The position numbers and the translations under genes were made by a program. The notes under the pieces are model-generated. The model did no database searches, was not told the DNA's origin, and was given only the letters and a program-made list of their open reading frames with translations. 45,355 bases of DNA from an uncultured Fibrobacterota bacterium (lineage in GTDB: Bacteria; Fibrobacterota; Chitinivibrionia; Chitinivibrionales; CAZJJT01), in NCBI GenBank assembly GCA_964546395.1, contig CAZJJT010000001.1:1-45355 (forward strand), written 5' to 3'. How positions within the stretch are numbered: position 1 is the first letter of the stretch; each line of letters begins with the position of its first letter. Positions 2,748 to 32,759 of this stretch are shown here, in pieces.

Positions 2748-3803
2748 ATGATTGGTACACGGATTGCCGTTGCCGCACTGGCCGGTGCCCTGGTGGTGCA
2801 GGCACAGACCTGTGATGACCCGTACGACCACACCCTGTGTGTCCCGACACTGCAGGCATCGGACGAAGCTTCGTTCTCCGTCAGCGACAACGCCCTTTCG
2901 TCGTTCTGGGGCAACTGGACAGGCAACGACTACATTGATTTGATATCGCCCGACAACTGCTACCCGGATCGCTGCGGATTCGTTGGCACCGATGACGCCA
3001 CGCTGATGGTCAAAGCCGCGGCTTCCACACGCGGCCTCTACCTTCTGGTCGAGGTCAACGACAACACGTGGGTCGACCGCGCTGACGCCAACGACTGGGG
3101 AGCAGACGCGGTCGACTTGTACCTTGATGCACGTGCGCCAAACGATATTGCGACATGCACGGGCTGCCTGATCGGCATGTACAGCTCTTCACTTACCTAC
3201 ACCACTCGCCAGTTCTTCGTGTGGATGGGTGGCTCCTCGCTTCCCGACGGTGCGCTGGCGGCGCACTACGACGACAACCTGTGGTCGTGGCAGAGCGCCA
3301 CCATGACCTGGGAGCAGCTTCAATCACAATGGGGCATGCATGCCGAGGTGGTGAGTATAGATGCCACGCGCAAGGCGCAGGAATGGTTCCTTCCGTGGGA
3401 CCGCTTCGGCGGCGATTTCGTAGAAGGTGCAAGCCTGGCTGGTCGACAACTCGGCCTGTCGGGCGGGTACAATGACAAGGATGGTGACAACAGCGAACCG
3501 CACTGCCTGCGCTGGCTCACCCGTGACCCGTGGGCGACCGATGCTACGAGCACCAACTACTGGGGAACCCTGCAGCTCGCGGACGACATCGGACCAGTTG
3601 CGGCGGCAAGCGCCGTACATCCCCGTTCGGGCGTCGTCCCGGCCCAGGGCAGCTGCAGACAGGCGGGGAGCGCCGCGGGGCGTTACTCTCTTGCGGGCCA
3701 GCGCGTTGCCGGTGCGCGGTCCATGCACACCACCGCATCGGGCGTCTATGTCGCCCGCGCGGCAGACGGTCGCACGGTGCGCCTCTTGCCGGGCCCGAGA
3801 TAG
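2748..3803 (+). CDS. Secreted carbohydrate-binding (CBM9/DOMON-like) protein with a short T9SS-type C-terminal sorting-domain-like tail
   Basis: GGAGG lies 6 nt upstream of the ATG. Signal peptide is MIGTRIAVAALAGALVVQAQ. The motif LYLLVEVNDNTWVD...WGADAVDLYLD is typical of CBM9-like modules. The tail RYSLAGQRVAGARSMHTTASGVYVARAADGRTVRLL resembles Por/T9SS CTDs. Confidence 0.65.
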   Translation: MIGTRIAVAALAGALVVQAQTCDDPYDHTLCVPTLQASDEASFSVSDNALSSFWGNWTGNDYIDLISPDNCYPDRCGFVGTDDATLMVKAAASTRGLYLLVEVNDNTWVDRADANDWGADAVDLYLDARAPNDIATCTGCLIGMYSSSLTYTTRQFFVWMGGSSLPDGALAAHYDDNLWSWQSATMTWEQLQSQWGMHAEVVSIDATRKAQEWFLPWDRFGGDFVEGASLAGRQLGLSGGYNDKDGDNSEPHCLRWLTRDPWATDATSTNYWGTLQLADDIGPVAAASAVHPRSGVVPAQGSCRQAGSAAGRYSLAGQRVAGARSMHTTASGVYVARAADGRTVRLLPGPR

Positions 3804-3809
3804 GCAGAA

Positions 3810-3834
3810 GGCCCCGGGGGGTTAGTCCGGGGCC
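3810..3834. terminator. GC hairpin after the CBM9-like gene
   Basis: Stem ggccccgg (3810-3817) pairs with ccggggcc (3827-3834). It lies 7 nt after the stop codon and has no clear U-tract. Confidence 0.45.
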
Positions 3835-3910
3835 CTCAAGCAGGAGGGGGCTATGCGCTGTCATGCAATCGCCCAAACCCATTCTACCATGGGCATGGCC
3901 CCGAAGCAAG

Positions 3911-3942
3911 GGAAAAAACAGCCCCGGCGCAAGCCGGGGCTG
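3911..3942 (-). terminator. Rho-independent terminator of the TonB-dependent receptor gene
   Basis: Stem cagccccggc (3919-3928), loop gcaa, stem gccggggctg (3933-3942). On the minus strand it is followed by a T-run (plus-strand aaaaaa at 3913-3918). It lies 13 nt downstream of the receptor stop. Confidence 0.65.
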
Positions 3943-3954
3943 CCGCATTTCGGC

Positions 3955-6009
3955 TCAGTAGTGGTACCGGAGTCCGATCGTGTACTTGCGCCCGAAGTCC
4001 GGATATCCGACCACGGTCGAATAGCGTACATCGGTCAGGTTGTCGACAGCGACGTACACGCGGAACTGCTGTCCGGAGGAGAGCCGGTACGTGTACCCCC
4101 CGCTGATGTCGAGCGTGGAGAAGTCGCCGATCTCGACGGTTTCCTTGTTGAGGGCGAAGCGCGAACTCTCGTATTCCGACACATACTTGCCGTGTACATT
4201 CAGGTCGAACGCACCGAGATACAGGCGCAGTCCGCCTCCGACGATCGCTTCGGGCTTCTCGTTGTCGGCCACGAACGCATCTCCCGTGGGTTTCCGTCTC
4301 TGGTGCCGCATGAGCGCGGCATTCGCAAAGCCCTCCGCCACGCCTTTGAACCGCGCCGTGCGCACCTCCGCTTCCACTCCCGCGGTGCGCATGTCCACAT
4401 TCTCGTAGAGCGGCATCAGCAGCGAGTCTCCGTTTACCGCAACGGTGTCCCACTTGCTGGTGATATTGACGCCATCGGCGCGGTAGACGACGAAGCCGCT
4501 GAGCGTTGCCGTGCCGAGCGTGCCATGCGCGGCCGCCACGCCGATGTCGACCTTGGTCTGCCGCTCGGCCTCGAGTTCCTTCAGCAGCGTGTCCACCGTG
4601 CCGGGAAGCGGGTTGACGAACCCGAACGCGCCGTAGCCGGTGAGTGAGATGCCGGGGAGCAGGTCGTAGCGGAGGCCAAGGTTGGCATTCAGCTGCGACT
4701 TGCGCCACTCGTCCTCAACCGGGTCGAGCGCAACCGGCCTGCCGGCTGCACGCCACACCACGCTGCCATCCACGTTGTACGCCGCGAACTCGTCGACATA
4801 GTCCTTCAGCCAGCGCACACCCAGATCCACCGAGAGCTTGCCGAACGAGTGCTCGTCAGCAACCGCAGCCGAAAGCGTCTGGATCGCGCAGCGCTTGCCC
4901 GAATAGAACCGCTTGCCGAACGGCGCCACCCAGTTGTTGTAGAGGAGACTGATGCGCATGACGTTCTGGCCGAACAGGCTCATCGCGTGGACGTAGTTGG
5001 CGCCCCACTCCCAGTCCAGATCGGGGTTGGCAGGTTCGCTGGCTGTGTCGCTGGCGTAGAAGTCGTGGTTACGACGGGTATAGTAGAGCAGCAGCGAGCC
5101 CGACATGCGGTCGCTGAAACGGTACATGGTGCGCGCGTTGGTGATGAGCGCGCGATGCGGGTCGAAGCGCTGCGGGATGGTCATGCTGGCGTTTGCAGTG
5201 TCGCCCGGGTACTCAATCAGCGATATCTCGCGCGTGCCGTACAGGCCGAACACGTTGGCCTGTACCGTCAGTTTTTCTCCCGGCGACACGCGGGTACGCA
5301 GGTAGAAATCCCACGCTTCCTCACCCGCGTTCTTCCCCTCCGGCCCCTCGGTCTGCAGCCCGCCTACGCCAGCGGAGTATTGCACCGGTCCCAGCGACGC
5401 CCCGTGGTTGACTGTGGCCCGGTACGTGTCGAACGAACCGTACGAGAGATCGCAGTCGAGACCAAGCTTGTCGTAGGAGCGCGGCACGATGTTGATGATG
5501 CCGGTAAGACCCGACACCCCGTTAATCAGCGCGGCGCTCGAACGAATGACCTCGATGCGCTCGATGTCCGCGGAAGGGAAGAAGTACGGAAGCTCCTCGA
5601 ACTCGCGCTGCCACACGCCGTCAACCGCATAGTCCGGATACGGATACTTCTGGCCCCGTACCGACGCGAAACTCTTCACCTTGCGGCCGCGCGACTCGAC
5701 CCATGCGCCCGGCACGTACTCCAGGGCATCGATAACCGTGGCCGCGTTCTGCGCTTCGATATCTTCGCGATCAACCACCGAAAGCGAGGGCTGCAGGGCT
5801 GGCGATTCGAGCAGTGGGTTCTCCACCGCGTCGCGCACGCGCGCCCGTACGCGCACCGTGTCGAGACTGGCCGGTTCACCAGCCACGAGCGCCGTGTCTG
5901 CCACGGGCTCTGCTGCAGACGTGCTCGCCCCGTCTTGCTGCGCCGCGGCCCACACCGCACACACCGCCGCCAACAACCCCACGTGCTGCCACGCTGCGTT
6001 CCACACCAT
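3955..6009 (-). CDS. TonB-dependent outer-membrane receptor, with no N-terminal STN signalling extension
   Basis: Signal peptide VGLLAAVCAVWAAAQQ. Candidate TonB box LDTVRVRA. Plug motifs DREDIEAQNAATVIDALEYVPGAWV and IERIEVIRSSAALINGVSGLTGIINIV. Long beta-barrel with an aromatic C-terminus (...YTIGLRYHY). GGAGGAGG lies upstream; the ATG at 6009 is preferred over the adjacent GTG at 6012. Confidence 0.9.
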   Translation of the reverse strand: MVWNAAWQHVGLLAAVCAVWAAAQQDGASTSAAEPVADTALVAGEPASLDTVRVRARVRDAVENPLLESPALQPSLSVVDREDIEAQNAATVIDALEYVPGAWVESRGRKVKSFASVRGQKYPYPDYAVDGVWQREFEELPYFFPSADIERIEVIRSSAALINGVSGLTGIINIVPRSYDKLGLDCDLSYGSFDTYRATVNHGASLGPVQYSAGVGGLQTEGPEGKNAGEEAWDFYLRTRVSPGEKLTVQANVFGLYGTREISLIEYPGDTANASMTIPQRFDPHRALITNARTMYRFSDRMSGSLLLYYTRRNHDFYASDTASEPANPDLDWEWGANYVHAMSLFGQNVMRISLLYNNWVAPFGKRFYSGKRCAIQTLSAAVADEHSFGKLSVDLGVRWLKDYVDEFAAYNVDGSVVWRAAGRPVALDPVEDEWRKSQLNANLGLRYDLLPGISLTGYGAFGFVNPLPGTVDTLLKELEAERQTKVDIGVAAAHGTLGTATLSGFVVYRADGVNITSKWDTVAVNGDSLLMPLYENVDMRTAGVEAEVRTARFKGVAEGFANAALMRHQRRKPTGDAFVADNEKPEAIVGGGLRLYLGAFDLNVHGKYVSEYESSRFALNKETVEIGDFSTLDISGGYTYRLSSGQQFRVYVAVDNLTDVRYSTVVGYPDFGRKYTIGLRYHY

Positions 6010-6056
6010 CACCTTCCTCCTCCCTGCACTCCGGCAGGCATTCGTATCCCGGCATG

Positions 6057-7439
6057 TCAGATTGAACCAAATGCTTCGCGTGTGTCTATCGCATGCAGCA
6101 CGCCGTCGTTGTCCACCACCAGGCCCAGCACGGTAGCGGTGGGAACGAACCCCGAACAGGCGTTGGGCAGCGACACGCGCGTGCGCGGTTTCCCCGTCAA
6201 ACCGTCCAACACCGTGAGCGCGTCACGCCGCGACGCATCAGCGTACACGACGTTGCCATGGTAGCAGTACAGCGGGCTGCACCCCTCGGCGGTGCGCTGC
6301 CACAGCGTCTTGCCGCTGGCAGCGTCCAGCGCGCTCACCTGCCGGTCGCGGACATACACCACCGAACCACAGGCGATCAACTGCGCCCCACCAATGCCGT
6401 CCCGGTCCCACACTATCCCGCCGTCACGCGCGTCCACACATGTCACGTGTCCTGCCAGGCCGCCGCCGGCATGCGACACGAACAGACGGTTCTCCGCGAA
6501 ATCCATCACGGCCCGCGCCAGTACCGGCGCCTCGTCGGCAATGGTCGCAACCCACACCCGCGCACCATCGCGCGAGTCAAGACACTGCAGCTCTCCTCCT
6601 GCCATCGTCAGCACCCGATCCATGACGCACAGCGGCTGCGATACCCCACCCGACACGCCGATCACCGACCACAGCACATCGCCCGAAGCGGTGTCAAGGG
6701 CCCAGAGCGTCGCGCCGGCAGGCCACAGCACGCGAGTCCCGGCCGGTACGGCCCTGCCCCGAATCCCCCGCGCATCAGGGGGCGCGAAGTGCCAGCGTAC
6801 TTCTCCCGTGCCGCCATCGAGCGCCACCAGCGAACCCTCGCGCCCCTTCTCTGCCGACACCGAGTACACGTGCGCGTGATCGGTGGAGAGAAACCCCATG
6901 CTGGGCGCCGTCGAACGCCACAACTGCCCGCCGCCCTCGAGATCCAGGGCGGTCACCATGGCGCCTGCCGGGGTGTTCTGGAAGGCATACACCGACACTG
7001 GCCCGGCAACGGGCGCGAAGACGTCGGTGGTCGAAGCCACGGAGAGTCCGGGGTGTGTCCATGTCTGGAATGATGCACCGAGTCGGGGATCGCCCCGCAT
7101 CGCCTGCCACATGGCGCCCGCAGTTCCCACGGCCACCACCGCACACGCGGCGGCGGCCCACACGCGGAGATGCCGGAATCCGGAGCGGTGAGACCCGGCG
7201 AGAGACCCACTGTCCAGGGCCTCACCCACTGCCCTGCGCATGCTCTCCACGCGCGTGATCGGCAGAGGTCCAGGCGTCGTGCAGACCCTGAGCGCATCGG
7301 CCGTGGCAGTCACCTTCGCGAGCGCCGCCCGGCACTGTGCGCACCCCGCCACGTGGCTGTCGAAACGCCGCCGATCGATATCGGACAGCACCCCCAACAC
7401 AGCCGCTTCCAGCATGCCGCGAGCCGTTGTGCAGTTCAT
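6057..7439 (-). CDS. Anti-sigma factor: N-terminal zf-HC2, one TM helix, periplasmic PQQ-like (BamB-like) beta-propeller
   Basis: I trimmed the ORF-track start to ATG 7437-7439, which has GAGG 5 nt upstream. N-terminus is MNCTTARGMLEAAVLGVLSDIDRRRFDSHVAGCAQCRAAL (H-x3-C-x2-C). TM helix is VWAAAACAVVAVGTAGAMW. It contains 7-8 repeats of the type ALDxxxGxxxW (ALDLEGGGQLW, ALDGGTGEVRW, ALDTASGDVLW, CLDSRDGARVW, CVDARDGGIVW, ALDAASGKTLW). Confidence 0.8.
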   Translation of the reverse strand: MNCTTARGMLEAAVLGVLSDIDRRRFDSHVAGCAQCRAALAKVTATADALRVCTTPGPLPITRVESMRRAVGEALDSGSLAGSHRSGFRHLRVWAAAACAVVAVGTAGAMWQAMRGDPRLGASFQTWTHPGLSVASTTDVFAPVAGPVSVYAFQNTPAGAMVTALDLEGGGQLWRSTAPSMGFLSTDHAHVYSVSAEKGREGSLVALDGGTGEVRWHFAPPDARGIRGRAVPAGTRVLWPAGATLWALDTASGDVLWSVIGVSGGVSQPLCVMDRVLTMAGGELQCLDSRDGARVWVATIADEAPVLARAVMDFAENRLFVSHAGGGLAGHVTCVDARDGGIVWDRDGIGGAQLIACGSVVYVRDRQVSALDAASGKTLWQRTAEGCSPLYCYHGNVVYADASRRDALTVLDGLTGKPRTRVSLPNACSGFVPTATVLGLVVDNDGVLHAIDTREAFGSI

Positions 7440-7513
7440 GAGGACCTCGGTCGATGAGTGAAGGCATCTTCTAAGAACACAGTACGCACATGGCTGTCCG
7501 AGCGGGACACCTC

Positions 7514-8050
7514 TCACCCACCGGCGTTCATGCGGACGGCGCGAAGGGCGCGCTGTGCACGCTTCTTGGCTGCTTCCGCCGAACACCCCACCGCCGCACC
7601 GATCTCGGCAAACGTGAACCCATGGGCGATGCTGAGCACCAGCACGCGGCGCTCATCGGGACGCAGTCGCCGCACCGCGTCCCAGACTTCACTGCGCATC
7701 GATACCGTTTCGGTCACGGGCGGCTCTTCGAGTCGGTCGCGGTATGCCTCGTGGGTCCGCAGGCGTCGAATCATGTCGCGGCATACGTTGCGTACGATGG
7801 CGTAGTACCATTGCGCGAAGGGTGCAAATGGGCGGTAGTGATGGCGGGCGCGCACCAGGCGCAGGAGACTCTCCTGCACCGCATCCTCGGCCAGCGGACG
7901 TTCGTGGAGATAGTCGAAGGCGATGGTGAACGCCGGCTGCGCGTAGCGCGTCACGAGCACATCCACCGCGTCATGCTCGCCGGTATACCGGAATCGCGTC
8001 ATCAACGTTTCGTCGGAGGCACGGTCGACACCACCACCGACCGCGCTCAA
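7514..8050 (-). CDS. ECF (sigma-70 group IV) RNA polymerase sigma factor
   Basis: Region 2 reads DAVDVLVTRYAQPAFTIAFDYL...AEDAVQESLLRLV. Region 4 HTH reads ERRVLVLSIAHGFTFAEIGAAVGCSAEAAKKRAQRALRAV. The ORF-track start is a TTG that overlaps the ABC ATPase stop (TTGA). An alternative start is the ATG at 8002. Confidence 0.85.
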   Translation of the reverse strand: MSAVGGGVDRASDETLMTRFRYTGEHDAVDVLVTRYAQPAFTIAFDYLHERPLAEDAVQESLLRLVRARHHYRPFAPFAQWYYAIVRNVCRDMIRRLRTHEAYRDRLEEPPVTETVSMRSEVWDAVRRLRPDERRVLVLSIAHGFTFAEIGAAVGCSAEAAKKRAQRALRAVRMNAGG

Positions 8051-8715
8051 GTGGCAACGCTCCCCTGCTCAATCCGGACGGTCCGGTCACCGCGTCCCGC
8101 TGCCGCCGCATCATGCGTCACCAGCATCACGGCGCCGCCCCCTGCGGCGAAATCGCGGATATAGTCGAGGACAGCGGCGGCATTCGTCTCGTCAAGGTTC
8201 CCCGTGGGTTCATCGGCCAGTAGCAGGCGCGGCCTGTTCACCAACGCGCGCGCCATGGCCACACGCTGCTGCTCGCCCGCGCTCAGTTCGCCCGGGAGGT
8301 GCTGCACGCGGGAGGCAAGCCCGAATCGCTCGAGCAACTCCCGGCCGCGCCCTTCTTCCCCGGCGTTCCGCGCCGCCACCAGCGGCACGAGAACGTTCTC
8401 GAGCACGCTCAGGTACGGTATCAGGTTGAACTGCTGGAACGCAAAGCCGATACTGTCGGCGCGCAGCGCCGCCCTCGCCGCCGACCCGAGCGGCCCGAGC
8501 GCGGTCCCGCACACCCGTATGTCTCCTTCGTCGACGCTGAGCAGGCCCGCGGCCGCCAGCAGGGCCGTAGTCTTACCCGACCCGCTCGGACCGCGCACAG
8601 CCACAAACTCACCGGCGGCAATACAGAGCGAGAAGTCGCGCAGGGCATGCACCTGGCTGCTGCCGGTACGATACGTCTTGGCTACACCATGCATCTCCAG
8701 CACACAGTCGGCCAC
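8047..8715 (-). CDS. ABC transporter ATP-binding protein (LolD/MacB-type)
   Basis: Walker A GPSGSGKTT, Q-loop FQQFNL, signature LSAGEQQRVAMARAL, Walker B LLLADEPTGNLD. I chose the GTG start at 8715: AAGGAG lies 8 nt upstream and it is 5 nt past the upstream permease stop. The track's longer N-terminus overlaps the permease. Confidence 0.9.
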   Translation of the reverse strand: MADCVLEMHGVAKTYRTGSSQVHALRDFSLCIAAGEFVAVRGPSGSGKTTALLAAAGLLSVDEGDIRVCGTALGPLGSAARAALRADSIGFAFQQFNLIPYLSVLENVLVPLVAARNAGEEGRGRELLERFGLASRVQHLPGELSAGEQQRVAMARALVNRPRLLLADEPTGNLDETNAAAVLDYIRDFAAGGGAVMLVTHDAAAAGRGDRTVRIEQGSVAT

Positions 8716-8719
8716 GGGA

Positions 8720-9985
8720 TCACTCCTTCTGCAGGATAGGTGCGGGATCGGATGTCGCCGCGGCAAGGGCCGGGAGCCACGCCGCGGCGATGCTCAGCAG
8801 CACGGCGCCCAGAGCGGCCGCAGTCCACAGCGTCAGCTCGGACCTGAACGGCACCGACACTCGCACGTGCACCAGCAACGCCAGCGCGGCGGCGAGGCCA
8901 ACACCAAACGTCGCCCCGACAACACCCGCGGCGACGGTCCGGGTGAGGAGCAGGCGGAAGACCCGCCCCGAAGTCCACCCGACGGCGCGCAGCACCGCGA
9001 TCTCCCTGCGACGGTTGCGTGTATCGACCCACGTGATGAGCGCGATGGCAGCCATGCAGGCGACCGCGCACAGCGGCACGAGCGTTCTGCTCAGGCGTTC
9101 GAGCAGGCTGCCCAGCTCCTCCCGGTGACGCTCCTCGGCGGCACGCCGGTCGCGCGCCGTAAGTACCGCCTTGTGACGGGCCTCGGCGCGCGTAAGCGCC
9201 TGCGACATGAACTCGATCACGCGCGTCCCCGGAAGAACAGCTTCGAGGTCCTGGCGGATCTTGGCGATGTTCGGCAGGGAGCTGTCGGCCTCGCACCGGC
9301 ACTCCAGTGCGAGGATCGCGTTGATCCGGCCCTCCCTGCCGAGGATCTTCTGCAGCGTGGCCAGGTCGATCCACGCGGTCATGTCATCCTGATCGCCGCG
9401 CGCCTCGTGACACGAGTCCACCGTAAACGTTCTGCCGAGGAACGTCAGCCTGGCACCCGGCTTTGCCCCGGCAATCCGGCACAGCTCCGATCCCAGCACT
9501 ACCTTCCCCTCCGCCACCGCTTCCCGCAACGGTTTCTTGGGCGGCCTGCCGCCCATGGAAGGGAGTTCGCCGCGCACGCCGATCAGGTTGATTCCCACGC
9601 CGTAGGGCTTCCATGTCATGCGGTGGTGCAGCGACGGCAGTACGTGCTGGACCGAGATGATACCCGAACGCGCCAGCCGCTGCGAGTACTCCTCCGGCAT
9701 GTCCCTGGTAATCTTCCCCTCGGCGTAGTAATCGGCCAGGCTCTGCCCCTGGGGAAGAATGAGAATGTTGAAGCCGAGACCAAGTGTGATCCGACGGTAC
9801 TCGTCCCACATCTCGTGCATCCGCTCTTTCACCTCGGCGTCCTTCTCCCCCAGCACTCGCCGCGTCTGCTCCGCGTACAGGTCGAGCAAACTCTCGGACA
9901 GCGGCAACAGCATCGCACCGAAACAGACCGCCGTCGCCATCAGCAGCGCGGTGGTCCGGTTGCTTCGCAGTTGACGCAGCGCCAT
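8720..9985 (-). CDS. FtsX/MacB-family ABC permease (second of two)
   Basis: Trimmed to the ATG at 9985 (MALRQLRSNRTTALLMATAVCFGAMLL), 17 nt after the upstream stop. Layout is TM1, a ~250-aa periplasmic domain, then the FtsX core NRRREIAVLRAVGWTSGRVFRLLLTRTVAAGVVGATFG plus two more TM helices. Charged helical segments flank the periplasmic domain. Confidence 0.8.
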   Translation of the reverse strand: MALRQLRSNRTTALLMATAVCFGAMLLPLSESLLDLYAEQTRRVLGEKDAEVKERMHEMWDEYRRITLGLGFNILILPQGQSLADYYAEGKITRDMPEEYSQRLARSGIISVQHVLPSLHHRMTWKPYGVGINLIGVRGELPSMGGRPPKKPLREAVAEGKVVLGSELCRIAGAKPGARLTFLGRTFTVDSCHEARGDQDDMTAWIDLATLQKILGREGRINAILALECRCEADSSLPNIAKIRQDLEAVLPGTRVIEFMSQALTRAEARHKAVLTARDRRAAEERHREELGSLLERLSRTLVPLCAVACMAAIALITWVDTRNRRREIAVLRAVGWTSGRVFRLLLTRTVAAGVVGATFGVGLAAALALLVHVRVSVPFRSELTLWTAAALGAVLLSIAAAWLPALAAATSDPAPILQKE

Positions 9986-10002
9986 GCGCAGCACCGACAC
10001 GT

Positions 10003-11265
10003 TCAGGCTCCCGCGTTCATGAGTGTACGGGCGGTGTCGTGGCGAAGCACGACAGCGGCCACCCAGAGATGCGCTGCCAGGCACAGTGCTGCCCCCGCAA
10101 CCGCTATGGTCGCGGCCGCGGCCCACCCCGCCTGCCCTTCCGGACTCCCCGCCGCAGCGCACCCGACAGCCAGCCCAACCACGGCGCCCACGAGCCCCAC
10201 CACGGCCCCCCGCCCGACGAACAGCCACGCCACGCCCGACGGCGCCATGCCAAGCGCTGTCAGCAGACCGATCTCGGCACGGCGGCGGTGAAGGTTGACA
10301 AAGGTCACGATGCCCACCCAGGCGGCACAGCACAGCCCCGCCCCCGCCAGCAGCAGCGCCAGCACATGGGACGTACCCAGCAGCAACGTGCGGTGGGCCG
10401 AACGCTCCGTCCCGGCCACGTCGTACGATACCTGCCGGGCCGCCTCACCCATGCGCGCCCGGGCACGTGAGGTGGCCCCGTGCCACACGATCTGCAGGCC
10501 GGCATGAGTGGTCTGCACGGCCTCTGCGACTGCGCCAGCGTCCATCGAGGGATCGCGGAGGACCGCGCCAATACTGCTGAGGCGCCCATCGAGTCCGAGC
10601 GCCCGCTGCGCGTCACCAAGTCCCATGCGCACCGAGATGTCGCTGCGCGAGCCCTGCTGCGCAACACACTCGGCTACTGTCAACGTCACCGCGCCCACAC
10701 TCACACGCATCCCGGCGGCGAGCGAACACTCACGGCATATCTCGTACCCCACGAACGCAAAGCCGGCTGTGGCGGGCACACCCCCAGGCTCACCCTTACC
10801 CGTCCACTCCGCCGAGAGAACCGTGTCGGCCCCAATGCCAACGATACGCACGGGGCCATGGTAACCACTCACTCGTCCCCACCCCTCGACACGTGGCTGA
10901 AGGCGACAGAAAGGGTTCTGGGCATCCGCGGCAAGGCTGTCGAGCATGTCCGCCCGCACCGTAGCCGTCACCACGCCTTCAGTGAGCATCGCCGCGCGGT
11001 CTGCACCGCTCGAGACGAGGAGCAGATCCGCGGGCATGCGTCCCCCAATCGCCCGGTAGTCCTGCTGCAGGGCCTCAAGCATGGCCTGCGTGCCGTGCTC
11101 CTTGTCCTTCACCAGCTGTTCAGAGCCGCTACGGTGAGCCTGGCCGAGTACCCACACGCCGACGGCGACACCAACCGGGACTGCGACCCCCAGCACCGAG
11201 AGCAGCGCCGACACTCGTGCCACGGCGAGTTCGCGAGCGACCATGCGACCTGCAGTCAAGCGCAC
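10003..11265 (-). CDS. FtsX/MacB-family ABC permease (first of two)
   Basis: I chose the GTG at 11265: GAGGAG lies 7 nt upstream, directly after the upstream stop. An alternative ATG is at 11244. TM1 is VSALLSVLGVAVPVGVAVGVWVL, followed by a periplasmic domain. FtsX core is LHRRRAEIGLLTALGMAPSGVAWLFVGRGAVVGLVGAVVG. The Pro/Arg-rich N-terminal extension in the ORF track overlaps the upstream gene and does not look like protein. Confidence 0.75.
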   Translation of the reverse strand: MRLTAGRMVARELAVARVSALLSVLGVAVPVGVAVGVWVLGQAHRSGSEQLVKDKEHGTQAMLEALQQDYRAIGGRMPADLLLVSSGADRAAMLTEGVVTATVRADMLDSLAADAQNPFCRLQPRVEGWGRVSGYHGPVRIVGIGADTVLSAEWTGKGEPGGVPATAGFAFVGYEICRECSLAAGMRVSVGAVTLTVAECVAQQGSRSDISVRMGLGDAQRALGLDGRLSSIGAVLRDPSMDAGAVAEAVQTTHAGLQIVWHGATSRARARMGEAARQVSYDVAGTERSAHRTLLLGTSHVLALLLAGAGLCCAAWVGIVTFVNLHRRRAEIGLLTALGMAPSGVAWLFVGRGAVVGLVGAVVGLAVGCAAAGSPEGQAGWAAAATIAVAGAALCLAAHLWVAAVVLRHDTARTLMNAGA

Positions 11266-11278
11266 AGTCGTGCTCCTC

Positions 11279-12574
11279 TCACCGCTGCCTCCTTCCCGCC
11301 AGCAGCACGCACGAACCGGCGGCCACGAGCACCACTGCCGCCGCGATGAGCAGCAGCATGCCTCTGCCTCCGGGCGAACTGCGTGCAGCGGCACCCCCCG
11401 CGGCCGAGTCCTCGAACAGGAAATCGAGTTCAGGCGGCACGGCGGCAACGGAACCGGAGGTGTCGAGGGCAGCGCCCGTCGATGAGTCGGTCGTGTCGGC
11501 ACGTACCGTTTCGGCGGGGGGCTCGGACGGCTTCGGCAGGGCCTGTTTCGGGGGCAGTGGTCCCGGTGGTGACACAGTCGGAGATGCCGTGGCCTTCGCG
11601 GGTGCGGCAGGTGGCGGGTCCTGCACAGCCGTATCCGCCGCGGCAAACGCCGAGAGACCCGACAGCGGCGGCGGGGGCTCATCGGGTACGGGGCGGGTTC
11701 GCAGCGCGGAATCCCAGTCCACTGCGAACACGAGGTCAAACCCGGGGTTCTGCTGCTTGACCGTGCACGCGCATGGCCCCGCCAGGAACGTACACACTTC
11801 CCGGACCGCCCTGCCCGTCATCTTTGCAGGAGGTATGGCCACCAGCGCCCGCCCGCGCCCAAACAGGGGAAACACAACGGGGTCGCTGAGCGTGTCTAGC
11901 CGTGCCTTGCCGCCGAGCAGCAGGCGAAGGAGCACCTGCTCGGAAGGGTCCGCTGCCGAGACAACCAGGGTGGAGAATGCAATGCGCAGCGGCACACCGG
12001 GTGACGGAGGGAAGTAGCCCGCGACCGGGTCGGGACTCGGGATCTTCAGTGAATCCTGCATGCGGGGAAGGTAGGTCCGCAGCGTGTCGACCACGCGCCT
12101 GGCAGCGGCACGGTCACTGCCGGTGACAATCAGCCACACACACGTCTCGCCTGACAGGAGCCTGCGCACGACCTCGCGCCTGATCGGCGACCCTATCAGC
12201 CGCTTCACCGGCTCCGCCTCGAACGGCGCCGACCACACCGGCGGCTGGTCGGGACGGGAGTAGACCGGGTACACGGCGATGCAGGGAAGCGGACTGTCGC
12301 CCAGGACTCCGTACCGAACCAGCGCCGAGGAGTCCTCGGAGGCACTGACATCAGTCTCTTGGAGCATCAGGTTGGCGCCTGTGGCGCCGATGCCGCGCAT
12401 GAGTGCCGAATCGGCCGCAGAGAGTGGTCCCCGGTGAAACACCATGGCCAGGTACGGATCTACCTGCCAGCGCTCGAGACCGTAGCGGAACACAGGGACG
12501 CTGCAGGCGATGGAGTGCTGCAGGAAAACGCTGAGGATGCCAAGCACGACAGCATGGGAAACGGCTCTGTTCAT
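11279..12574 (-). CDS. Conserved-looking hypothetical envelope protein: signal peptide ending at Cys, Cys-motif domain, Pro-rich linker, C-terminal TM anchor
   Basis: Trimmed to the ATG at 12574, giving signal peptide MNRAVSHAVVLGILSVFLQHSIA|CSVPVFRYGLERW. A second Cys motif is FLAGPCACTVKQQNPGFDLVFAVDW. Linker is PVPDEPPPPL...PPAAPAKATASPTVSPPGPLPPKQALPKPSEPP. C-terminal TM is MLLLIAAAVVLVAAGSCVLLAG followed by RRQR. There is no obvious SD sequence. Confidence 0.7.
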   Translation of the reverse strand: MNRAVSHAVVLGILSVFLQHSIACSVPVFRYGLERWQVDPYLAMVFHRGPLSAADSALMRGIGATGANLMLQETDVSASEDSSALVRYGVLGDSPLPCIAVYPVYSRPDQPPVWSAPFEAEPVKRLIGSPIRREVVRRLLSGETCVWLIVTGSDRAAARRVVDTLRTYLPRMQDSLKIPSPDPVAGYFPPSPGVPLRIAFSTLVVSAADPSEQVLLRLLLGGKARLDTLSDPVVFPLFGRGRALVAIPPAKMTGRAVREVCTFLAGPCACTVKQQNPGFDLVFAVDWDSALRTRPVPDEPPPPLSGLSAFAAADTAVQDPPPAAPAKATASPTVSPPGPLPPKQALPKPSEPPAETVRADTTDSSTGAALDTSGSVAAVPPELDFLFEDSAAGGAAARSSPGGRGMLLLIAAAVVLVAAGSCVLLAGRRQR

Positions 12575-12673
12575 GCACTGGAAACTACTGCCGGGTCCGA
12601 CCGGGGCGTGCGGGCGTGCGGATACCATATATGCAGTACGCACGGCAGAAGCGTACCGGGACAACCGCGGCGC

Positions 12674-13618
12674 TCAGCGGAATCGCGGCAGGCTGAGTCG
12701 GCCAACCGCCGCGCCAGCCTGCGGCGGATCGGCCCGTCCCGCCGCCCGTCCACTCAGGCCTACGGCATCGCCTGCCGGGCCCTGCCCTGCCCCTGCCCCC
12801 GGAGCCGTCCTCCACCGGGGCACGCCGGCGGCAGTAGGCAGGTAGAGCTGCGCAACGGCCCACGCCTTCTCCTGCATGTAGGTGCGCAGGGCTGCATCGT
12901 AGGTCACGTTGGTCACATCGGTGTAGTGGTAGTCAAGACCGACGGGCGATTGACGGGTGAGAATCGCGTAGAACATCCACGAGTTGAGGTATGACGCGAG
13001 GTTGTTCTGGTGCAGGTCATCACCGTACAAGTAATCTCGTGCGGTTACGCCGGGCGGCAGCGTATCGGTCAGGTTGTGCCAGGCGTGCGAGCAGGGCACC
13101 ACGGGTACGCCGAGATGCTGGCCAAGATTGGTGTAGTTGGTCTGGAACGCGACCATGTCGTTGTGAAACTTGCTCGCACTCATCCACGATGCCAGCGGGT
13201 TGCCGGTCCACGGCATCATGAGCACCAGCTGCGCGCCGTGCGCAGTGGCCAACGAGTCGAACCTGGTGGCGTACTTGTAGAGCGTGTCAAGCGTCCCGGC
13301 CGGGTAGTCGATCCCGCTCCAGTAGCCCTGCAGCACCACGATGTCCCAGTTGCCGGTGCGGATTGTCTCGGGCGCCCCACTCGTGTTCCACATCACCTCG
13401 ACATCTTCACCCCACGACACACTGGCCTGGGTGGTAACAGCCAGTGAGGGAGTCGCGGCGGCAAACATCCGCCTCACGTACTCGTGCAAACCGCCACTCG
13501 TACCCACGTAGCTGTTGCCCACGAAGAAGATGCGGGCGTTGTCCTGGATGGGAACCTGGGCGTACACCGTCGTTGCCGCAAGTGCCACCGCACACACGCT
13601 CATCGGTACGTGTCTCAT
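12674..13618 (-). CDS. Secreted SGNH/GDSL-like hydrolase (putative carbohydrate esterase)
   Basis: Trimmed to the ATG at 13618, with GGAGG upstream. Signal peptide is MRHVPMSVCAVALAATTVYAQ. Block I-like FFVGNSY and block V-like GDDLHQN are present. The Gly/Ala/Pro-rich C-terminal tail only faintly resembles the CTDs of neighbouring secreted enzymes. Confidence 0.6.
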   Translation of the reverse strand: MRHVPMSVCAVALAATTVYAQVPIQDNARIFFVGNSYVGTSGGLHEYVRRMFAAATPSLAVTTQASVSWGEDVEVMWNTSGAPETIRTGNWDIVVLQGYWSGIDYPAGTLDTLYKYATRFDSLATAHGAQLVLMMPWTGNPLASWMSASKFHNDMVAFQTNYTNLGQHLGVPVVPCSHAWHNLTDTLPPGVTARDYLYGDDLHQNNLASYLNSWMFYAILTRQSPVGLDYHYTDVTNVTYDAALRTYMQEKAWAVAQLYLPTAAGVPRWRTAPGAGAGQGPAGDAVGLSGRAAGRADPPQAGAAVGRLSLPRFR

Positions 13619-13742
13619 GCATACCTCCATTCCAAGATTATAGAATAGCAGGACCACATGCGCTATGGCGATCTTATTGGCGACTTTCTACAGTTGCTAG
13701 CTGATATATTATAGCCCGTAGAACCATGTCAGGAGAAACTCG

Positions 13743-15251
13743 ATGCGTCGTTCGCCGCGCAGGGACGTTGCCCTTGCCTACCTTCACTCGCTCGTATCGG
13801 GCACCTCGCCCGATTCTCCCGCCCGTCTGCCCACAATCGCAGTGCTGGCCCGCAAGGCAGGCGTCGCACCAGCGACGATGTGGAGCGCGGTACGGCAGTT
13901 GTGCAGGGAGGGTGTGTTGGTGGCCCGGCCGCGCAGCGGGGTGCACATCGCCCGCGACCCCTTCGGTGACCGTCCTCGCCCGCCGGGTGACAGCTCGGGT
14001 CAACTGCCTTCCGCCGCCCAGCGTTGGGAACACGTACGCGACCGCATCGAGGAGGATATCGCGGGTGGTGTCTTCTTCTCCGAGGGAATCCTGCCACGCA
14101 GCAAACAGCTGCTGATACGCTACGGCGTGTGCCACCAGACCCTCCGCAAGGCCCTCGCGTCACTGGAGCAAGGCGGTGCGCTGGTTCGGCGGAGCAAGTC
14201 GTGGCATATCGTGGGCAACGCGCCGCGGACCACATCTTCGACCGTTCTGTTCATCGAGTGGGTATCCGGGCAGGCGGTGGTGAATGCACTGGACACCGAG
14301 TGCTCGCGCATGGGACTGCGCCTGCAGATCGTACGCCTGTTCCCGCGTGAGCGGCTGTTCGAAACGCTCGCCCAGCTTCGCGCCGGCTCAGGCGACAAGC
14401 CCGTGGTGGGAGTGCTCCTGGCAATTACCGGCGGCTCGCCGGCCCAGTACCGTGAGATACTCACCGCCATCACCCCTTTCGAGCGCCCGATTGCGATCCT
14501 CGACCAGACCGGTGGCGCCACTGGTGTCTCGCTGCCCGGGGGCCGTGCGGTTCGTGTGGTCACCATCGCCGCGAATCGTGAACCGGGGCGCCTCATGGGC
14601 CGGTTTCTCCTGAACAACGGGCATCGCCGTGCCGCGTTCATCTCTGCCGTGCACCACGAGAACTGGTCACGCGCTCGGTACGCGGGCATGGAAGAGGTGT
14701 TCAGGCGGGTCCCCGGGGCGCGCCTGGTGGAGGTATTCGACGAGCGCGGGAGGAGTCCGCAGGCGCACAGCACACAGGTGGCAGCCGACCTGTTCTGGCT
14801 CACCGAGAAGCTGCTGAGCCGTGAGCGTCCGCGCCACCGGCGTCTCGCCCGCTGCCTCCGGCGCATGAGCACCGAACTCAGCGCCGCGATGGCCTGGGCG
14901 TACGTGGAGGAGGGGCTGGGTCCGCTGATGGAGCGGGCGCTGGCGATGCCCGGGGTGAGTGCCTGGGTTGCGGCCAACGACCCCATGGCGCTGGCGTGCA
15001 CGGAGTTCCTCCGCTCCCGCGGCGTGCGGGTCCCCGAGGACATGTCGGTGGCAGGCTTCGACGACAGCCTTGCGGCGTTCACCGCCGACCTCACGAGCTA
15101 CAACTTCAACCGGACCGCAGCCGTACGGGCGGCAGTGTCGTACCTGGTGTCGGGTCCCGCAAGGGGGGGGGCGTCGGGACCGCGCACGGTGGAGATAGAT
15201 GGGTTCGTGACGCCGCGTGGGTCGACGAGAAACCTGGCCACGGCAACCTGA
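13743..15251 (+). CDS. Transcriptional regulator with two tandem GntR-type winged-HTH modules and a LacI/PBP1-type sugar-binding domain
   Basis: AGGAG lies 8 nt upstream of the ATG. wHTH 1 is LPTIAVLARKAGVAPATMWSAVRQLCREGVLVARPRSGVHIA. wHTH 2 is LPRSKQLLIRYGVCHQTLRKALASLEQGGALVRRSKSWHIV. The C-terminal half carries PBP1-like motifs (...AWVAANDPMALACTEFLRSRGVRVPEDMSVAGFDD). Confidence 0.75.
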   Translation: MRRSPRRDVALAYLHSLVSGTSPDSPARLPTIAVLARKAGVAPATMWSAVRQLCREGVLVARPRSGVHIARDPFGDRPRPPGDSSGQLPSAAQRWEHVRDRIEEDIAGGVFFSEGILPRSKQLLIRYGVCHQTLRKALASLEQGGALVRRSKSWHIVGNAPRTTSSTVLFIEWVSGQAVVNALDTECSRMGLRLQIVRLFPRERLFETLAQLRAGSGDKPVVGVLLAITGGSPAQYREILTAITPFERPIAILDQTGGATGVSLPGGRAVRVVTIAANREPGRLMGRFLLNNGHRRAAFISAVHHENWSRARYAGMEEVFRRVPGARLVEVFDERGRSPQAHSTQVAADLFWLTEKLLSRERPRHRRLARCLRRMSTELSAAMAWAYVEEGLGPLMERALAMPGVSAWVAANDPMALACTEFLRSRGVRVPEDMSVAGFDDSLAAFTADLTSYNFNRTAAVRAAVSYLVSGPARGGASGPRTVEIDGFVTPRGSTRNLATAT

Positions 15252-19774: not shown

Positions 19775-21190
19775 TCACAGCGGCTTGACGGTTCTGAACC
19801 CGATGGTCATGTAGCGAAACTCCGGACTGAACCACATCTGGCGCATGTACGAAGTCAGGTTTGTGGTGTCATTGTCCTGGCTTGCGCCGCGCACCGTGCG
19901 CGTGCGCTGCGTGCCCGCGCTCACCGGGCCGGTCGGGTCCACCTGCGGATCGGCCGCATAGTAGTGCCACCAGTCGTTGGTCCACTCCCAGACGTTGCCA
20001 CTCATGTCGTAGAGCCCGAATGCATTGGGCAGCTTCTGGGCAACCGGGTGGCTCATGTCGCTGCTGTTGTCGCGGAACCACGCGTAGTACGTGCTGCTGT
20101 CCACCGATCCCCAGTATCGCTCACCCGTCGTGCCCGCGCGACAGGCGTACTCCCACTGTGCTTCGGAGGGCAGCCGGAACCCGTCACGGTCGTGGTGGAT
20201 CACCAGTCCGGCCATGGCGCTGCACCCATACCCGGGCACACCGGTCAGGCCCGTGTACTCGTACACCGTATCCAGGTCGTCGGTCCGGCTCTGTGCGTTG
20301 CAGAACAGGGCACAGTCGAACCAGGTCACACTCTCCACCGGCAGTTGGTGGTCGTAGGAGAACCCGCGCACCACCGGCGGGCTCACACCCATCACCGCGA
20401 GGTAGCGCTCCTGTGTCACTTCGGTCGTGTCGATGTAGAACCCCTCCGTGAGCGTCACCTGGTGAATGGGAGCCGCCGGGCTTTCGGTGCCCAGCCCACC
20501 CATCATGAACGTGCCGCTGTCGAGCTGTCGCATGCCGTTGACGGCCGGCACCGCTGTCGCGGCCTGCAGGGCCACGTCGTACACGCCTTCCAGTGTGTCA
20601 ATCGACATGATCAGCTGCTGGTAGCCCAGCGCCGTGAACACAAGGGTATCCATGCCTACCGAGACTCGCTTCTCGCGCGCGGCCGTATGCCCCGTTTCAC
20701 GAACGGCACATGCCGGAACGCCGCGTTCCACCGTCGCCATGCGCAGCACTGTCAGTCCGGGACCGCTCTCGAAGCGGACCAGGCGGACCCCACTCGCACC
20801 AAGGCGCGTGCCGAGCGCAAGCCGGTGTTCACCGCTGCCGTACGTACCCCGTGCCACCTCTCGCACCAGCCTGCCCGAAACATCGTGAACGCTCACCGAC
20901 ACGGCTTGTGGGCTCCTGAGACGGAAGCGAAGCGTGCCGCGCTCAAGGGCCACGTCGGCCCGCGGACCAGCGACTGCCGCACCCTCGCTCACCCGTGTGG
21001 CCCCGCTGAGCGTGTACAGCCCGTCGGCATCAGTCGCGCCCATCACGTCGCCCATCATGAGCCACACCCGCACCTGTTCGAGCGGGGCGTTGCCCGGTCC
21101 GGTGACATGCCCGGTAATGGAGACGGGAAGCTGGGCGTACAGCGAACCCGCAAACGCAAGCACTGCGCAGAACGTAGTAGCAGTCCTCAT
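19775..21190 (-). CDS. Secreted multidomain formylglycine-generating-enzyme (FGE-sulfatase/SUMF1) family protein
   Basis: Trimmed to the ATG at 21190; signal peptide is MRTATTFCAVLAFAGSLYAQ. A CarboxypepD_reg-like module follows (ITGHVTGPGNAPLEQVRVWL...TDADGLYTLSG), then an Ig/CTD-like stretch (VSVSVHDVSGRLVREVARGTYGSGEHRLAL). The C-terminal FGE domain carries GFRLPSEAQWEYACRAGT, FGLYDMSGNVWEWTNDWW and RTVRGAS. Confidence 0.85.
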   Translation of the reverse strand: MRTATTFCAVLAFAGSLYAQLPVSITGHVTGPGNAPLEQVRVWLMMGDVMGATDADGLYTLSGATRVSEGAAVAGPRADVALERGTLRFRLRSPQAVSVSVHDVSGRLVREVARGTYGSGEHRLALGTRLGASGVRLVRFESGPGLTVLRMATVERGVPACAVRETGHTAAREKRVSVGMDTLVFTALGYQQLIMSIDTLEGVYDVALQAATAVPAVNGMRQLDSGTFMMGGLGTESPAAPIHQVTLTEGFYIDTTEVTQERYLAVMGVSPPVVRGFSYDHQLPVESVTWFDCALFCNAQSRTDDLDTVYEYTGLTGVPGYGCSAMAGLVIHHDRDGFRLPSEAQWEYACRAGTTGERYWGSVDSSTYYAWFRDNSSDMSHPVAQKLPNAFGLYDMSGNVWEWTNDWWHYYAADPQVDPTGPVSAGTQRTRTVRGASQDNDTTNLTSYMRQMWFSPEFRYMTIGFRTVKPL

Positions 21191-21268
21191 GGTGAAGCCC
21201 TCTCGAAACCAGTCGGGGGGGTGTCTGGATGAGCGCGAGAAGTCGACAGTCCAATATAGCATGCGTGC

Positions 21269-32639: not shown

Positions 32640-32759
32640 TCCTGCTCCGCCTTTTGGGGCAATCCCGCAGAGGGGGTGTATATTCGATTGCCGTGCGATA
32701 CGGCCAAACCAGCCAAAATAGCCCTTGAAGGAAGTCCAGTTCAACCGGGACCACTGCAC

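Follow-up and report, generated by a model that had tools for sequence, protein, structure and literature searches.

ATP-binding cassette (ABC) systems of type VII are defined by their periplasmic partners, and the few that are understood work with EnvC, LolA, MacA-TolC or TesA. In YbbAP-TesA, the type VII machine is paired with a periplasmic partner of its own (PMC12646458). We analyzed a 45,355-bp stretch of DNA from an uncultured Fibrobacterota bacterium (complete NCBI contig CAZJJT010000001.1; hereafter the window) and characterized a cluster of seven co-directional minus-strand genes encoding a Cys-motif protein, two FtsX-type permeases (FtsX-1 and FtsX-2), an ABC ATPase, an extracytoplasmic function (ECF) sigma factor, an anti-sigma factor and a TonB-dependent receptor. 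The cluster shares with FtsEX-EnvC, LolCDE-LolA, MacAB-TolC, YbbAP-TesA and HrtBA the FtsX domain with four transmembrane (TM) helices, the stalks and the MacB/LolC-like periplasmic domain, as modelled for FtsX-2, and, as in other type VII systems, an extracytoplasmic partner is encoded alongside. It differs in the nature of this partner, a three-Cys, probably tandem-thioredoxin-like membrane protein in place of EnvC, LolA, MacA or TesA, in the invariant periplasmic CxC of its permease, and in a TonB receptor and a giant β-propeller that recur as further components.

We consider it fairly probable that the seven genes constitute one self-regulated envelope module, the ECF-wired version, in one lineage, of a widespread and unnamed five-part system. 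The core of that system is composed of a TonB receptor, a PQQ_2 β-propeller, a membrane-tethered three-Cys protein, a dedicated FtsX permease and an ABC ATPase. To this core, the lineage of the window adds a second FtsX paralogue, an ECF sigma factor and an anti-sigma factor fused to a propeller. The first-pass annotation had suspected an undescribed type VII ABC envelope module with the Cys-motif protein as its partner, which is supported here by the gene order of related loci, and searches of Pfam, NCBIfam, PDB sequences and the full-text literature returned no characterized system matching the gene set.

Layout of the cluster and its predicted promoters

Gene calls were based on the open reading frame (ORF) listing combined with Pfam and NCBIfam searches, and junctions were read directly on the sequence, which bore out all seven genes, the junctions and the terminator described in the first-pass annotation. 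The Cys-motif gene (11279–12574; 431 aa) is followed by FtsX-1 (10003–11265; 420 aa), a diverged paralogue with an FtsX domain, FtsX-2 (8720–9985; 421 aa), which carries the same domain and is the orthologue of the single FtsX of the wider module, the ABC ATPase (8047–8715; 222 aa), the ECF sigma factor (7514–8050; 178 aa), the anti-sigma factor (6057–7439; 460 aa) and the receptor (3955 to 6009 or 6012; about 684–685 aa). Thirteen nucleotides, including a GAGGAG ribosome-binding site, lie between the stop of the Cys-motif gene (11279) and the FtsX-1 GTG (11265), and 17 nt between the FtsX-1 stop (10003) and the FtsX-2 ATG (9985); an alternative in-frame GTG at 10000, used in the database gene call P0085, would reduce the latter gap to 2 nt. 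The FtsX-2 stop (8720) is 4 nt from the ATPase GTG (8715), and the ATPase TGA overlaps the sigma TTG as TTGA (8050–8047). The gap between the sigma and anti-sigma genes measures 74 nt and that between the anti-sigma and receptor genes 47 nt, or 44 nt if the receptor starts at GTG 6012. An intrinsic terminator (3917–3944, minus strand), consisting of a hairpin with a 12-bp stem containing nine GC pairs followed by a T-run, closes the cluster.

All seven genes occur in the same order in two further contigs, L001 and L170, and a third, L171, carries the first five (Cys-FtsX-FtsX-ABC-sigma). The closest relative of the cluster sits in a Chitinivibrionales metagenome-assembled genome. The cluster proteins are only 41–67% identical between the window and these three contigs, the receptor being 65% identical to that of L001. 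The 4-nt ATPase/sigma overlap is kept in L001, as ATGA, and in L170. Because the order recurs in three other contigs at this level of divergence, and because a 10-base bipartite motif stands at the same two intergenic positions, the arrangement goes beyond chance.

This motif, TGTCCC-N17-CGTA(Y)TG on the coding strand, lies upstream of the Cys-motif gene (P1; window 12663–12635, L001 9942, L170 7356, L171 6810) and between the sigma and anti-sigma genes (P2; window 7509–7481, within the 74-nt gap, L001 15241, L170 12622); L171 lacks an anti-sigma gene. It was thus found at seven of the seven expected sites in the four contigs, always with a 17-nt spacer. A CGT-containing −10 element at this spacing is typical of ECF promoters. 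In the window both sites read TGTCCC-N17-CGTACT, on the minus strand, and the −10 element of P1 ends 61 nt before the ATG of the Cys-motif gene. Matches to TGTCCC/CGTA exceeded chance expectation in the window (3 vs 0.14), L001 (2 vs 0.13) and L170 (2 vs 0.10), and P1 and P2 were the only perfect matches in the window to a 13-base version of the motif. A scan of 3500–13200 for sigma-70 promoters found none. Since the motif is shared by both sites, two sigma-dependent units are predicted, one running from P1 through Cys-FtsX1-FtsX2-ATPase-sigma and the other from P2 through anti-sigma and receptor. The autoregulated promoter that the first-pass annotation had proposed looking for upstream of 12574 has a candidate in P1, with P2 as a second putative site. 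The third window match, TGTCCC-N18-CGTA at 9700–9727 on the plus strand, is antisense within FtsX-2, has no counterpart in L001, L170 or L171 and is probably due to chance.

The sigma factor contains regions 2 and 4 only (TIGR02937, 78.5 bits; cut-off 42.9). No NCBIfam sigma subfamily reached its cut-off for this protein, and the main text of the ECF classification 2.0 paper contains no FtsX, PQQ or propeller context. The anti-sigma factor is of the zinc-finger (ZAS) type, with a cytoplasmic zf-HC2 domain (29.5 bits; HxxxCxxC motif in 'SHVAGCAQC'), a single hydrophobic TM helix after it and a periplasmic 310-aa PQQ_2 propeller; no FecR domain was detected. Apart from the window's own protein, it has three close relatives, two of them on short contigs, and three further matches are weak (E-values 1e-6 to 7e-5). 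In the receptor, Pfam identified a Plug domain (61.9 bits, residues 76–171) and neither an STN domain nor a barrel. Weak NCBIfam and PDB matches, mostly to the plug region, were led by siderophore, heme and B12 receptors, and the length, an 'LDTVRVRA' sequence resembling a TonB box and the aromatic residue at the C terminus agree with a TonB-dependent receptor. Domain searches also agreed with the earlier description of a non-FecR anti-sigma factor, a non-STN receptor and a cluster without HlyD or LolA/B-like proteins.

The co-occurrence of ECF sigma factor, anti-sigma factor and TonB receptor, together with the weak similarity of the receptor to siderophore, heme and B12 receptors, could be read as Fec-type ferric-siderophore signalling that an unrelated ABC operon adjoins by chance. 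Fec-type signalling was rejected on domain content, as the receptor has no STN and the anti-sigma factor no FecR. Adjacency by chance is further contradicted by the translational coupling of the sigma gene to the ATPase gene in three genomes, by the same promoter motif heading both units, and by the receptor subfamily, which elsewhere travels with Cys, FtsX and propeller genes without any sigma gene. We therefore regard this explanation as extremely improbable.

The ECF coupling emphasized in the first-pass annotation proved real in the window, L001, L170 and L171, but it is confined to this small lineage and is not a property of the wider system. The ECF version was seen in these four contigs only, with all seven genes in the first three. 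L170 holds both kinds of propeller, the anti-sigma-fused one and a giant propeller upstream.

Two further observations concern the surroundings of the regulated units. Directly upstream of P1, 12674–13657 (minus strand) encodes a 327-aa secreted protein without a Pfam match, in which 'FVGNSY' and 'DDLHQN' appear SGNH-like by eye; it is 45% identical to a 323-aa gene product at the same position in L170 and lies outside the sigma-dependent unit. A regulator combining GntR and Peripla_BP_3 domains is encoded near all three full ECF loci (window 13743–15251, plus strand; L001 3590–5176; L170 398–1924) and may represent a second control layer or shared lineage synteny.

The Cys-motif protein, the permeases and the ATPase

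The Cys-motif protein found no meaningful match in Pfam, even at E=10, NCBIfam or a PDB profile search. Its family is nevertheless large: a profile search of 1.84 billion representative proteins retrieved 4,019 clusters, defined at 50% identity, at E≤1e-3 and 2,592 at E≤1e-30, and a scan of one genome per species found at least 588 carrier species. Most of the best 80 carriers belong to Verrucomicrobiota and Planctomycetota; the remainder include Sumerlaeota. The planctomycetes Gimesia, Planctopirus and Rhodopirellula have the module. Along the family alignment, a signal peptide is followed by an invariant Cys and VPVFRYALERW, a 'FPVFGRGRAL' block, the motif G-x-C-x-C-x-VK-x-x-NPG-x-D...W, then a variable linker rich in Pro and, at the C terminus, a TM anchor that ends in a basic tail. 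The window protein carries both family motifs, AxA|C-x-VPVFRYALERW and G-x-C-x-C...NPG-D...W, and its invariant cysteines are C24 and C268xC270. These residues are kept or lost together: of 307 distinct domain copies, 305 have the full set of three and two have none of them. Both exceptions are second copies or parts of fusions, such as the second copy in the tandem Cys-domain protein P0205 (647 aa).

Among 207 members, Ala occupies position −1 of the signal peptide in 94% and position −3 in 61%, with Leu at −3 in a further 11%, and R, W, Q or E are frequent at position −2. These AxA statistics indicate a signal peptidase I site and not a lipobox, so that the mature protein would start with Cys; for the same reason, the lipoprotein reading of the N-terminal Cys was judged unlikely. 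Such a reading underlies a Lol-like sorting model, in which lipidation would take place at the N-terminal Cys, and the resulting lipoprotein, or else the propeller, would be extracted or positioned by the FtsX permeases and ATPase. The model draws on the Cys that directly follows the signal peptide in all members, on LolC, LolE and LolF among the best structural and sequence matches of the permeases, and on some low-GC members that lack the C-terminal anchor and whose signal peptide ends in 'LSLAC'. Against it, the cleavage region is AxA; the invariant VPVFRYALERW after the Cys is modelled as a helix with a fairly confident predicted local distance difference test (pLDDT) score and not as a flexible tether; the N-terminal Cys is lost together with the CxC; and the cluster encodes neither LolA nor LolB, with an LolC/E equivalog score of 24.9 bits against a cut-off of 362. 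Taken together, sorting of this kind is very unlikely to be the function of the cluster.

The low-GC subfamily itself (L124 5196–5981 and L139 1927–2715, both on the minus strand) comprises proteins of ~261 aa without linker or C-terminal anchor, in which the signal peptide ending in 'LSLAC' precedes TT-x-VSEW and the CxC is retained; these proteins may be anchored differently.

The AlphaFold2 model of the Cys-motif protein has a pLDDT of 80, with 236 residues at or above 90. Using Foldseek against the PDB, all top matches were multi-thioredoxin-domain proteins (PDI a-b, QSOX1, ERp57, ERp44 and calsequestrin), with E-values from 6e-5 and TM-scores of only 0.17–0.32, and the order of secondary-structure elements in the model fits two thioredoxin-like (β-α-β-α-β-β-α) units. 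The ectodomain thus probably adopts a tandem thioredoxin-like fold that lacks the CxxC: where this active-site motif would be expected, at the beginning of helix 1, the protein has 'FHRGPL' and 'ESGD'.

FtsX-2 matches the FtsX domain PF02687 with 51.9 bits and FtsX-1 with 33.5 bits (cut-off 25.5). FtsX-2 is the orthologue of the FtsX of the module, scoring 260–315 bits compared to 75–117 bits for FtsX-1, and this permease is well conserved, at ~40% identity across phyla. Its invariant periplasmic residues include H114, W125, D200, D201, W205, C229 and C231, the two cysteines forming the CxC of 'ALECRC', the window's version of the subfamily motif 'ALECxC'. An invariant periplasmic CxC is therefore present in both the Cys-motif protein and FtsX-2. 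The FtsX-2 model (pLDDT 88.9) shows four long TM helices and long stalk helices at 10–70 and 261–324; it matches LolE, LolC, HrtB, MacB, YbbP, YtrF, BceB and FtsX, and its periplasmic domain has structural matches in the corresponding domains of MacB, LolC and LolE (TMt about 0.5). In fold class, FtsX-2 belongs to the mechanotransducing permeases of the MacB/LolC type (type VII). FtsX-1 is 23% identical to it, aligned over 371 residues, and lacks the periplasmic CxC. A second FtsX was found in only two of the 86 Cys-seeded loci described below (L001 and L074), and the ECF-type contigs L170 and L171 also have two.

The ATPase contains Walker A (GPSGSGKT), signature (LSAGEQQR) and Walker B (LLLADEP) motifs; its best NCBIfam match is LolD (189.5 bits), then DarD, YbbA, FtsE, DevA and MacB, all below the equivalog cut-offs. 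The FtsX domain, the stalk-borne periplasmic domain of the FtsX-2 model and the ATPase similarity place the cluster in the type VII superfamily.

A type VII fold and ATPase matches to DarD, MacB and bacteriocin exporters would equally be expected of a sigma-controlled Bce/MacB-type resistance or efflux system that removes an antimicrobial peptide, a toxin or a hydrophobic compound. ABC resistance modules under ECF control are widespread, and in Bce systems it is the transporter that does the sensing. We nonetheless consider such a role quite unlikely: the cluster contains no membrane-fusion protein, TolC or histidine kinase, FtsX-2 is modelled with four TM helices instead of the ten of BceB, and the partners, namely the TonB receptor, the propeller, the Cys protein and, in the loci of Planctomycetota and Verrucomicrobiota (PVC), an oxyanion importer, would be unexpected in detoxification.

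Gene neighbourhoods across phyla

To survey the wider distribution of the cluster components, 86 non-redundant loci were collected around Cys-motif genes and their ORFs scored with hidden Markov models seeded from the window proteins. The Cys gene is followed by a co-directional FtsX gene in 48 of the 74 loci with enough view and by FtsX plus the ABC ATPase in 42 of 69, so the synteny of the Cys-motif protein with FtsX and ATPase genes, set beforehand as the test of its involvement, was recovered. Among 45 fully viewed loci, 13 combine FtsX with a neighbouring giant PQQ_2 propeller (mostly 1,200–1,450 aa), 14 FtsX only, 13 the propeller only and five neither. The giant propellers (1,000–1,500 aa; for example L034 5709–9785, L119 4866–9500 and L144 6011–9721) have a signal peptide, 9–20 Cys residues, and methyltransferase-like and C-terminal malectin domains. 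The window has no giant propeller, its only PQQ_2 propeller being the one fused to the anti-sigma factor; from gene order, we infer that the latter descended from the giant propellers. The class-I S-adenosylmethionine-methyltransferase-like domain (45.9 bits in L119, Pfam cut-off 27; weaker in L034 and L043) belongs to secreted proteins, a methyltransferase fold outside the cytoplasm being unexpected.

The receptor provided an independent starting point. The window receptor is 33–35% identical over its full length to receptors of the Verrucomicrobia loci L034 and L084, whose genes are divergent from a propeller-Cys-FtsX-ABC operon. In L034, a PucC-family major facilitator superfamily transporter gene (12982–14457, plus strand) comes after the ABC gene of the module. 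Scanning metagenomes with the receptors of the window, L001, L034 and L084 yielded 80 loci at 36–44% identity, with GC contents of 35%–69%. These loci contain the giant propeller in 48 cases, the Cys protein in 38, the ABC ATPase in 37 and an FtsX-2-type permease in 35, and nine of the 12 with at least 7 kb visible on each side hold Cys, FtsX and propeller together. Unbiased all-against-all clustering of their ORFs was led by far by five families, those of the receptor and these four partners (35–80 of the 80 loci); next came two sets of 158-aa ORFs (11–12 loci), at least one of which is antisense inside a receptor gene, and a sulfatase (nine loci). Since the receptor-side search returns the same set as the Cys-side search, the core is defined by these five parts. 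In L152, L154, L156 and L163, overlapping genes on one strand read CYS-FtsX-ABC-PROP-TBDR (propeller, TonB-dependent receptor), the order of the window minus the sigma gene and with a full-size propeller, and the ECF sigma gene was absent from all 80 receptor-seeded loci. The propeller and receptor, which the first-pass annotation had treated as additions to an ABC machine, are therefore core partners of the module in many phyla.

A periplasmic thiol-redox or maturation machine would account for part of this picture. The CxC motifs of the Cys protein and FtsX-2 would form or rearrange disulfides in Cys-containing propeller clients, or hold these clients for assembly, with the ATPase supplying mechanical work and the receptor only co-regulated. 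The thioredoxin-like fold with PDI and QSOX as best matches, the invariant all-or-none cysteines, the CxC in FtsX-2, the 9–20 Cys residues and signal peptide of the giant propellers, and the fusion of a giant propeller and malectin to a Cys-family domain (L043 6870–11561) all speak for it. Yet the fused domain in L043 has no cysteines at all, the canonical CxxC positions are occupied by FHRGPL and ESGD, and the strong receptor linkage and the ModABC coupling and fusion described below would be left unexplained. We consider this reading unlikely, if somewhat better founded than resistance or sorting.

A ModA-type gene set was found in 24 of the 86 Cys-seeded loci, corresponding to 18 of the 41 that contain FtsX and are visible for at least 5 kb downstream. 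It comprises a double ModA-like binding protein (TIGR01256, 96 bits; cut-off 62.5), a ModB-like permease and a WtpC/ModC-like ATPase, with MoaD/ThiS in some loci (e.g., L002) and MoeB/ThiF in most. In 11 loci the set directly follows the ABC gene, often with overlapping stop and start codons; PVC examples are L013 (10064–13824), L018, L023, L049, L063 and L064. In addition, P0300 (900 aa) is a complete Cys protein fused to a double ModA-like binding protein, with consistent membrane topology. ModA-type and receptor-type contexts never occurred together in the loci examined. These ModABC links point weakly to a metal oxyanion, such as molybdate or tungstate, or another thiol-binding species as the substance taken up or handled, molybdate and tungstate being suggested by the operon fusion with ModABC-MoaD-MoeB and by the Cys-domain/ModA fusion protein. 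The 'export' function that the first-pass annotation had entertained alongside sensing is accordingly not favoured, as the receptor and ModABC links would fit uptake or handling better.

In the window, the flanks of the cluster encode GH30, GH31 and CBM9 proteins besides the GntR/Peripla_BP_3 regulator. A 1,674-aa protein (28326–33350, minus strand) combining BcrAD/BadFG ATPase and DUF2229 domains, as in a coenzyme A-enzyme activase, and an FGE-sulfatase-domain protein (19775–21262) are unrelated to the cluster.

Proposed function and comparison with known systems

If the seven genes act as one module, FtsX-1 and FtsX-2 would pair as LolC and LolE do, with two ATPase copies driving the heterodimer. 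ATP hydrolysis would move their periplasmic domains, which would act on the membrane-anchored Cys protein or in concert with it. The N-terminal Cys and both CxC motifs may constitute the working site, and a thiol-binding cargo, conceivably a metal, a metal oxyanion or a sulfur species, would be passed on or processed. The receptor would carry this cargo across the outer membrane and the propeller would bind it. With the propeller fused to a zinc-finger anti-sigma factor, a periplasmic ligand or the state of the machine could release the sigma factor, which via P1 would raise the machine and itself (positive feedback) and via P2 would raise the receptor together with its own inhibitor (negative feedback plus an outer-membrane component).

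We tentatively propose, as a possibility that we hold with considerable doubt, that the five-part system is a hitherto unrecognized trans-envelope pathway by which members of many phyla acquire a scarce thiol-binding metal or oxyanion; that it employs a type VII ABC machine for uptake or hand-over and not for export; and that the propeller became the sensor of an ECF switch in the lineage of the window. Several points weigh against the proposal or the module behind it. We know of no type VII ABC system that is an importer, nor of a precedent for a receptor-to-FtsX route. ModABC, MoaD and MoeB genes are absent from the window contig, and Rfam searches of the window, L001, L034, L084, seven ModA-type and ten receptor-type loci returned no Moco, cobalamin or other riboswitch that would name a ligand. 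Similarity between the propeller of the anti-sigma factor and the giant ones is limited to the repeat level (E-values of 1e-8 or weaker), the low TM-scores make the fold of the Cys protein probable and not proven, and the assignment of P1 and P2 as promoters comes from motif conservation only.

The single Rfam match was an Acido-Lenti-1 RNA (RF01687) in L029 (8745–8790, plus strand, and 8719–8764, minus strand), downstream of a ThiF-like gene and unrelated to the module.

The cluster is a candidate new type VII system whose partner family is large and has no Pfam or NCBIfam model. The occurrence of an invariant CxC in both the partner and the permease suggests thiol chemistry, which to our knowledge has not been described for the type VII superfamily. 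The self-contained ECF switch with its predicted promoters also offers an experimental handle, since a P1 or P2 reporter could reveal the inducing ligand and hence the function of the family.

Compared to LolCDE, the cluster likewise has two paralogous permeases and one ATPase, but FtsX-2 and FtsX-1 score only 24.9 and 18.3 bits against TIGR02212 (cut-off 362), and there is no lipobox in the Cys protein and no LolA or LolB in the cluster. Unlike MacAB-TolC, the clusters of the window, L001 and L170 include neither an HlyD membrane-fusion protein nor an outer-membrane channel, and the MacB equivalog score of the window cluster is far below the cut-off. The FtsEX equivalog TIGR00439 gives 16.9 bits against a cut-off of 255, and no EnvC, LytM or amidase gene is adjacent.

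With BceAB-BceRS, the cluster shares an FtsX-type transporter coupled genetically, and by inference functionally, to its own regulator, and BceB is among the structural matches. Here, however, the regulator is an ECF sigma factor with a ZAS anti-sigma factor bearing a propeller sensor instead of a kinase and response regulator, the permeases are ~420 aa with four modelled TM helices in FtsX-2, whereas BceB has ten, the host is diderm and a TonB receptor belongs to the set. FecIRA resembles the cluster in combining an ECF sigma factor, a membrane anti-sigma factor and a TonB receptor in one locus, with the receptor predicted to be under sigma control; it differs from the arrangement found here, in which the receptor lacks STN, the anti-sigma factor is built of zf-HC2 and PQQ_2 instead of FecR and the sigma gene is translationally coupled to that of an ABC ATPase.

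As for the partner protein, PDI a-b, QSOX1, ERp57 and ERp44 are its best Foldseek matches, and conserved Pro residues may correspond to their cis-Pro loop. In contrast to these proteins, it has no CxxC, one of its cysteines opens the mature chain and the other two form a CxC beyond the second domain, and no sequence-level match links it to PDB or Pfam families. The NosZ maturation set, with NosDFY, the copper chaperone NosL and the NosA/OprC receptor, provides an analogous combination of a propeller protein, an ABC machine, a small Cys helper and a TonB receptor. The resemblance is one of analogy, the components being unrelated in sequence and family: the permease NosY is of the ABC-2 type, NosD is a β-helix protein and NosL a lipoprotein.

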